A DNA stretch of 64,000 nucleotides from NCBI GenBank assembly GCA_965645245.1, contig OZ287070.1, positions 558,001-622,000 on the forward strand. The letters are read 5' to 3'. The stretch comes from Massalongia carnosa (lineage: Eukaryota). Positions 44,301-44,441 of the stretch are shown here, in pieces (the first letter of the stretch is position 1; the number at the start of each line of letters is the position of its first letter). The notes under the pieces are model-generated. The model ran no database searches. It was given only the letters and a program-made list of their open reading frames with translations, and was not told where the DNA came from. A program made the translations under genes and the position numbers.

Positions 44301-44441
44301 TGAGTCAATTGTGCCGCTTCTCGAACCTGTAAATATGCGTTAGTATGTGGATTAGCCCGGTCCTGGGGTGGGGAGACTTTCGGTGAATGGGCGAACTCGG
44401 ACTGCTACACTGATTGAAGATGCGCCATCCGAGGCTGCCAT
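41318..44441 (-). CDS. KIP3: Kinesin-8 motor (Kip3/KipB/Klp5-6 family), 3 exons
   Basis: SISVAVRVRPFT|VREAAQL, FDRVFD, P-loop [54 protein letters not shown], kinesin-8 neck NRHVKDFLVKIDEQ. Confidence 0.95.
44327..44381 (-). other. Probable non-canonical GA-AG spliceosomal intron (kinesin-8 intron 1, 55 nt)
   Basis: Minus strand reads CCATTCACC|GAAAGT...TACTAAC...TTTACAG|GTTCGAGAA. This junction restores the family-typical RVRPFTxREAAQ. Confidence 0.7.

Follow-up and report, generated by a model that had tools for sequence, protein, structure and literature searches.

When the GU of a 5′ splice site is mutated to GA in yeast or mammals, the first step of splicing is usually completed and the reaction stalls before exon ligation; our literature search for a statement on this second-step block of GA donors found only a passing mention of a U2A mutant. 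That such mutants usually stall is the reason why the GA 5′ splice site of human FGFR1-3, a natural site that is reportedly used efficiently, is said to have been termed a 'dead-end' site by Brackenridge et al. in 2003. GA-AG introns are rare, but fungi, plants and animals all have documented cases, and to this class the intron described here adds a candidate member. That the class is real, as an earlier note on this DNA had stated, is borne out by the published cases in the passages cited below. RNA-seq of Fusarium graminearum found GA-AG among the rare sites, within the 0.31% of 'other' sites, and seven genes with non-canonical sites were confirmed by Sanger sequencing, in a passage that leaves their site types unstated (PMC3577648). 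For Ganoderma lingzhi, the annotation lists 35 GA-AG entries, which make up 0.038% of the tabulated sites (PMC11590231). Intron 12 of SYMRK in Trema orientalis has a derived GA donor allele that segregates in nature and is, according to the passage, fully functional (PMC10668435). Use of GA-AG introns is genome-wide in Eurytemora affinis as well as in Oikopleura dioica, reaching 3.2% of supported sites in one species; the passage describes the GA of these donors as preceded by a conserved AG and followed by an A, and says that the human FGFR GA site depends, among other features, on a canonical site 6 nt upstream (PMC7072748).

Here, we have analysed the first intron of a gene on the minus strand of a 64,000-nucleotide stretch of Massalongia carnosa DNA (the window), where the earlier note had suggested a kinesin-8 motor domain interrupted by a GA-AG intron. 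Its coordinates for intron 1 and its motifs (RVRPFT, GAAAGT, TACTAAC, CAG and VREAAQL, read on the minus strand) all proved correct. The parts of the gene are as follows.

44382..44441, minus strand: exon 1 of kinesin-8, made up of the ATG and 19 further codons (MAASDGASSISVAVRVRPFT), strand beta-1 of the motor.
44327..44381, minus strand: intron 1, 55 nt, phase 0, GA...AG, at the codon boundary that holds a GT-AG intron in lichen-forming relatives.
44376..44381, minus strand: donor hexamer GAAAGT, equal to the consensus GTAAGT except at +2 (A at 44380).
44376..44377, minus strand: cryptic GT, positions +5/+6 of the old donor, the sole canonical donor preserving RVRPFT.
44339..44345, minus strand: branch-site heptamer TACTAAC; its branch A is 44340, and the G of CAG follows 13 nt later.
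44327..44329, minus strand: acceptor CAG; the orthologous introns end here in CAG, TAG or AAG.
44187..44326, minus strand: exon 2, 140 nt (VREAAQLTHIPDGPLFLGDGSLAGIPTPKITSKGIRPVLKVVDDKCL), last codon split, opening with GTT CGA GAA (VREAAQL).
44320..44321, minus strand: cryptic AG within the conserved codons CGA GAA, a partner for the cryptic GT that gives ...FTEKAAQL.
44139..44186, minus strand: intron 2, 48 nt, phase 2, GTAGGT...CAG, canonical.
41318..44138, minus strand: exon 3, with 2818 nt followed by the TGA stop (41318-41320); it encodes the remainder of the motor domain as well as the coiled coil and tail.

Read on the minus strand, the start codon is the ATG at 44441-44439 and the last codon of exon 1, which closes ...RVRPFT, is the ACC at 44384-44382. 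The three exons sum to 1006 codons. The annotated orthologue of Pseudocyphellaria aurata, P0003, also has 1006 aa; its first 20 residues are the 20 residues of exon 1, and it then continues with VREAAQL. If intron 1 is read through, a TAA is reached after nine further codons, and 55 nt is not a multiple of three, so that the segment is indeed unreadable in frame, as had been claimed. The companion statement, that the other introns reconstructed in the window are GT-AG, holds for intron 2; beyond it, the check covered a few unverified candidates that bridge open reading frames.

The predicted gene is a kinesin-8 (Kip3/Klp5/KIF18-19 family) of a lichen-forming ascomycete, and exon 3 dominates it. 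This identity, which had been proposed from the window alone, agrees with the Pfam match, with the ranking in a structure search and with the names of the nearest proteins. The Kinesin domain (PF00225) is found in exon 3 with E=1.5e-110 over profile positions 31-327, the first strand being encoded by exon 1. The nearest named protein is P0003, 'kinesin-like protein Klp5' of P. aurata, with 85% identity to exon 3 of the window, and further orthologues from lichen fungi carry the names kip3 or KIF18/19. When P0003, which served as the query in place of the window protein itself, was compared with solved structures, yeast Kip3, KIF18A and KIF19 ranked best among the named chains, with KIF13B, KIF4 and kinesin-1 behind.

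How does intron 1 compare with the described cases? Like the F. graminearum and G. lingzhi examples, as given in the passages above, it is a U2-type intron of a fungal nuclear gene that begins with GA and has AG as its acceptor; those examples come from RNA-based annotation, whereas the junction in the window is derived from homology. As in Trema SYMRK, the GA is derived and due to the change of a single base, in an intron and a gene that are both conserved. The two differ in that, according to the source passage, SYMRK is a plant gene with an ancestral GC, whereas the window intron has GT at all 14 intron-bearing loci described below; moreover, the function of the SYMRK allele was shown by complementation and RNA, whereas the window junction has been worked out from DNA and homology. 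The human FGFR1-3 intron is, as is proposed for ours, a GA-AG intron of the major spliceosome, efficient use being a feature of FGFR. Unlike the FGFR site as the passage describes it, the window donor has no upstream GT at 6 nt within the RVRPFT codons, and its only nearby GT lies 4 nt downstream. In the two genomes of Eurytemora and Oikopleura the spliceosome accepts GA donors, as is proposed for the one seen here; in contrast to the pattern given for them in that source, the exon in the window ends in CC, and the donor is a single GA case within 64 kb. As for its type, U12-type introns are marked by /ATATCC or /GTATCC at the donor and by TCCTTAAC as their branch site; GAAAGT and TACTAAC do not fit these signals, and a U12-type intron was rejected. 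What is found at the locus is a genomic GA at +1/+2, a branch site and an AG at a bona fide intron position, with signals that are not U12, as expected of a U2-type GA-AG intron.

The position of intron 1 is shared with relatives. Using the exon 2 peptide together with the six preceding intron-frame codons as query, we found 45 loci (L001-L045) in metagenome contigs. At all 14 intron-bearing loci (L001-L012, L014 and L015), the same T and V/I codons are separated by a GT-AG intron of 48-53 nt; these loci are all on JAABU-type, lichen-type contigs, and near-duplicates among them reduce the sample to about seven distinct sequences. The 14 donors are GTGAGT (6), GTAAGT (2), GTATGT (2), GTAGTT (2), GTATGC (1) and GTATGA (1). 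Since the phase-0 position and the flanking codons are the same, the window segment is this intron, altered from T to A at +2. The GA donor is, on this comparison, a derived single-base change (GT to GA) in an intron that has GT wherever the intron was found (14/14 loci). Conservation of GAAAGT among orthologues of kinesin-8 intron 1, which the earlier note had put forward for checking, was not what these metagenome loci gave, all 14 having GT donors. The full TACTAAC heptamer occurs only in the window and is absent from the other distinct orthologous introns among the 14 loci; it may be compensatory for the GA donor, a speculation from a single case.

At the other 31 of the 45 loci, which are from other fungi, the gene is intronless here, with contiguous codons for RVRPFTIREAAQL. 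Intron 1 of kinesin-8 is therefore lineage-restricted in this sample, present at the 14 lichen-type loci and absent from these 31, and this distribution suggests that the intron was either gained in the lichen-forming group or lost outside it.

The N-terminus of P0003, used as a query for short proteins, returned 120 ORF calls, of which 112 show TIRE, TVRE, TIHE or TIKE, seven read through the intron and one is without the motif. Five of the seven read-through calls encode V-x after the T codon, which corresponds to a GT donor. The sixth, P0227, which ranks in exon 2 with the calls most similar to the window, has A-S after the T and implies a GC donor such as GCAAGT; this apparent GC echoes the GC-to-GA route that the source passage proposes for Trema SYMRK. 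The seventh, P0268, has E-S-V-S after the T, from either a GA donor or a canonical GT six bases downstream. These two calls are leads read from protein, and they suggest that position +2 of intron 1 is not rigidly fixed in relatives. The same pattern (GT in most relatives, apparent GC in P0227, possible GA in P0268 and GA in the window) lies behind a broader reading, to which we give a slim chance, in which +2 of this intron, or of short introns of strong context more widely, would be nearly free to vary in these lichen fungi, a state that would hint at a lineage-specific tolerance of GA in their spliceosome. If this were true, the tolerance would be like that of Eurytemora and Oikopleura, and these fungi would offer a natural system for exon ligation with an A at +2.

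That the A at 44380 is real DNA came from the comparison of the window, at 43800-44700 (901 nt), with Logan contigs of four runs (X1, X3, X4 and X5). X1 (word depth 396) and X3 (873), which belong to one study and are possibly the window's own source, are identical to the window, the A at 44380 included. X4 is a lichen metagenome of a separate study (depth 27), and a single contig of 10,169 nt spans the whole of 43800-44700. It differs from the window by five bases, at 44069, 44294, 44480, 44556 and 44573, and by none in 44327-44381. The contigs of X5 leave out 44351-44439, so that the donor lies outside their coverage. The consensus of at least two strains therefore reads GAAAGT here, and the A is no assembly error. 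Among the sequencing runs that contain this part of the window, none was on record as RNA, and the contigs compared, all of DNA type, showed no joints. The view that the GA is present in the genome was thus upheld by contigs of three runs from two studies, with a second strain among them. That the A is an artefact of sequencing or assembly, or a minor allele standing alongside a GT allele, would be easiest to defend on the grounds that contigs, rather than raw reads, were compared, that contigs drop rare variants and can hide a minor allele, and that X1 and X3 may be the window's source. We consider it very improbable, as the same base was found in three runs at word depths from 27 to 873, and one of these is an independent metagenome that has its own differences elsewhere and leaves 44327-44381 unchanged.

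Some features of these runs lie outside the intron. Upstream of the kinesin-8 start codon, 15 nt are inserted after 44619 in the second strain, X4, whose differences at 44480, 44556 and 44573 lie upstream of that codon too. X5, labelled as a different organism (organism B), gave three short low-depth contigs (43825-44056, 44170-44350 and 44440-44700), all identical to the window, and that sample therefore seems to contain the window's fungus in small amounts.

If the GA is real, which junction restores the protein? RVRPF is present in 121 of 220 fetched proteins, and every one of the 121 continues with T-[I/V/L]-[R/Q/K/H]-E (TVRE in 23). We enumerated every G[T/C/A]-AG pair near the junction that is in frame into exon 2 and free of stops. 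Among the 22 such pairs, GA(44381)-AG(44327) is the only one that gives RVRPFTVREAAQL. On this enumeration of predicted products, the conserved N-terminus is made only by joining 44382 to 44326, i.e. by a GA-AG intron, so that the claim that the conserved motor N-terminus needs this intron held up against 22 pairs and 121 proteins. The upstream in-frame donors (GT at 44410, 44408, 44402 and 44396; GC at 44405 and 44392) remove part or all of RVRPF(T), and two combinations with GC(44356), making introns of 37 and 40 nt, preserve RVRPFT and insert ESLPTPGP after it. In a screen of the window by pattern only (donor-like, branch-like and AG signals bridging open frames), GT was not enriched over other dinucleotides; as the motif screen did not separate GT, the weight of the argument is on homology and not on motif statistics. 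Protein searches for the spliced product of the window's own species, including searches with the P0003 N-terminus at near and shorter lengths, returned none.

Three other ways of arriving at the N-terminus were rejected. A-to-I editing of the donor would yield GG and not GU; another first exon would need a second RVRPF-coding stretch, and 43800-45000 has only one; and a start further downstream would lose strand beta-1, exon 2 being without a Met.

Could canonical sites nearby have taken over? GT 44377 could be joined to AG 44320, giving ...RVRPFTEKAAQL..., a product one residue shorter, or GT 44396 could be joined to the normal CAG, with VRPFT deleted. Both options are in frame and free of stops, donor mutations often activate nearby GTs, and P0089, a public model from a relative, uses the equivalent of the upstream option. 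Set against this, GTCTCC agrees with the donor consensus at its GT only, and this GT is simply what stood at +5/+6 of the former donor. It would have to pair with a GAG that lies within conserved codons, 7 nt beyond a CAG that would go unused, and joining GT 44377 to the normal CAG shifts the frame. After RVRPFT, TEK or a missing residue occurs in none of the 121 proteins, and the upstream option loses the core of strand beta-1. We regard the use of cryptic canonical sites as improbable. The earlier opinion that the canonical alternatives are poor agrees with the enumeration; GT 44377, for which it had named AG 44320 as the only partner, is in frame solely with AG 44320 (...FTEKAAQL) and AG 44317 (...FTETAQL).

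We argue, at somewhat better than even confidence, that splicing at 44381/44327 still removes intron 1 as a GA-AG intron. The comparisons show the DNA state, the intron position shared with relatives and the need for this junction if the conserved protein is to be made; that the junction is used, and with what efficiency, is what we infer. An ordinary short U2-type intron, with GT in relatives, would have had its donor +2 turned to A in the window species, and the spliceosome would remove it at 44381/44327, probably with reduced efficiency. Recognition could be through a donor that is otherwise consensus (+1 G and +3 to +6 AAGT) for pairing with U1 and U6, and could be further helped by the perfect TACTAAC, the CAG acceptor and the short length of the intron. 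Against this proposal, the exon end ACC lends no extra pairing at -3 to -1 with U1, and a canonical site 6 nt upstream, such as the FGFR GA site is said to need, does not exist here. The product would be the conserved protein of 1006 residues, ...RVRPFT|VREAAQL.... The suggestion of the earlier note that a weak donor with an optimal branch point could throttle or regulate a dosage-sensitive motor found no supporting evidence, and the simplest view is of a derived, tolerated single-base change rather than a regulatory throttle.

The main rival to splicing at the GA donor is a young null or hypomorph, followed by the cryptic sites discussed above, and the artefact or minor allele is unlikely. 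According to this rival, the T-to-A change disables the donor, and the intron is retained or the reaction stalls after the first step, with a 29-residue product or decay of the mRNA as the outcome and a recent null or strong hypomorph, yet to gather further damage, as the genetic result. GA donors are classically blocked at the second step, reading into a retained intron ends at a TAA once nine codons have passed, and Aspergillus nidulans can do without kinesin-8. The 1006-codon frame is wholly intact, which speaks against a loss; however, the strains differ by less than 1%, so that an intact frame is weak evidence of function. Further evidence against a disabled donor is that the GA state is common to samples of two studies, that natural functional GA donors are known, and that the gene differs little between two strains that carry the GA. 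The protein P0001 was called on a contig of 10,169 nt, and the X4 contig over kinesin-8 is also 10,169 nt long. Between P0001 and the exon 3 translation of the window there are five differences in 927 residues; every one falls in the C-terminal tail, and the motor and coiled coil are unchanged. Moreover, both coding differences between X4 and the window in 43800-44700 are synonymous third-position changes (AGG to AGA and CCT to CCC). The gene looks maintained in carriers of GA, and the pattern would fit purifying selection, at low power. Two coding differences in 539 would predict about 10 substitutions over exon 3, so that five amino-acid changes are not clearly fewer than neutral, and with strains as close as these, neither an intact frame nor a low number of amino-acid changes says much against a function lost recently. 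Weighing these points, we hold a disabled donor to be unlikely, though still to be reckoned with, and prefer continued splicing of the GA-AG intron.

The main use of the finding is as a caution for annotating lichen genomes. Gene predictors that are limited to GT and GC donors will mis-model the N-terminus of this motor, by dropping strand beta-1 or by choosing a downstream start, and lichen genome annotation therefore needs RNA-aware or homology-aware handling here. Mis-annotation of the N-terminus had been foreseen, and it is plausible in view of P0089, the public model from a relative that is without five residues at this exact junction. P0089, from the annotation of Xylographa soralifera, reads ...SISVCVRVREAAQL and is missing VRPFT or RPFTV. 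Such a gap is what a predictor restricted to GT would give by way of an upstream in-frame GT, and it may reflect either another non-canonical donor or a plain annotation error.

Public models of this gene also show a second kind of irregularity, in that several of them merge kinesin-8 with a neighbour (P0079, P0112, P0113, P0118, P0128-P0131, P0152 and P0202). In P0079 the protein fused upstream resembles the window ORF 44972-45547, and in the others it is a methionine sulfoxide reductase domain (PF01625) that is fused. These fusions are probably merged gene models that mirror a conserved gene order. A Pfam scan of four neighbouring ORFs of the window, two downstream and two upstream of kinesin-8, gave no match.

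Should the junction go unused, kinesin-8 would have been lost or weakened very recently at this locus, in a symbiotic fungus that grows slowly. Should it be in use, the segment would be a natural, conserved fungal intron that works after a change from GT to GA, with a protein end-point that is unambiguous, and would provide a clean substrate for asking which sequence context rescues a 'dead-end' donor.
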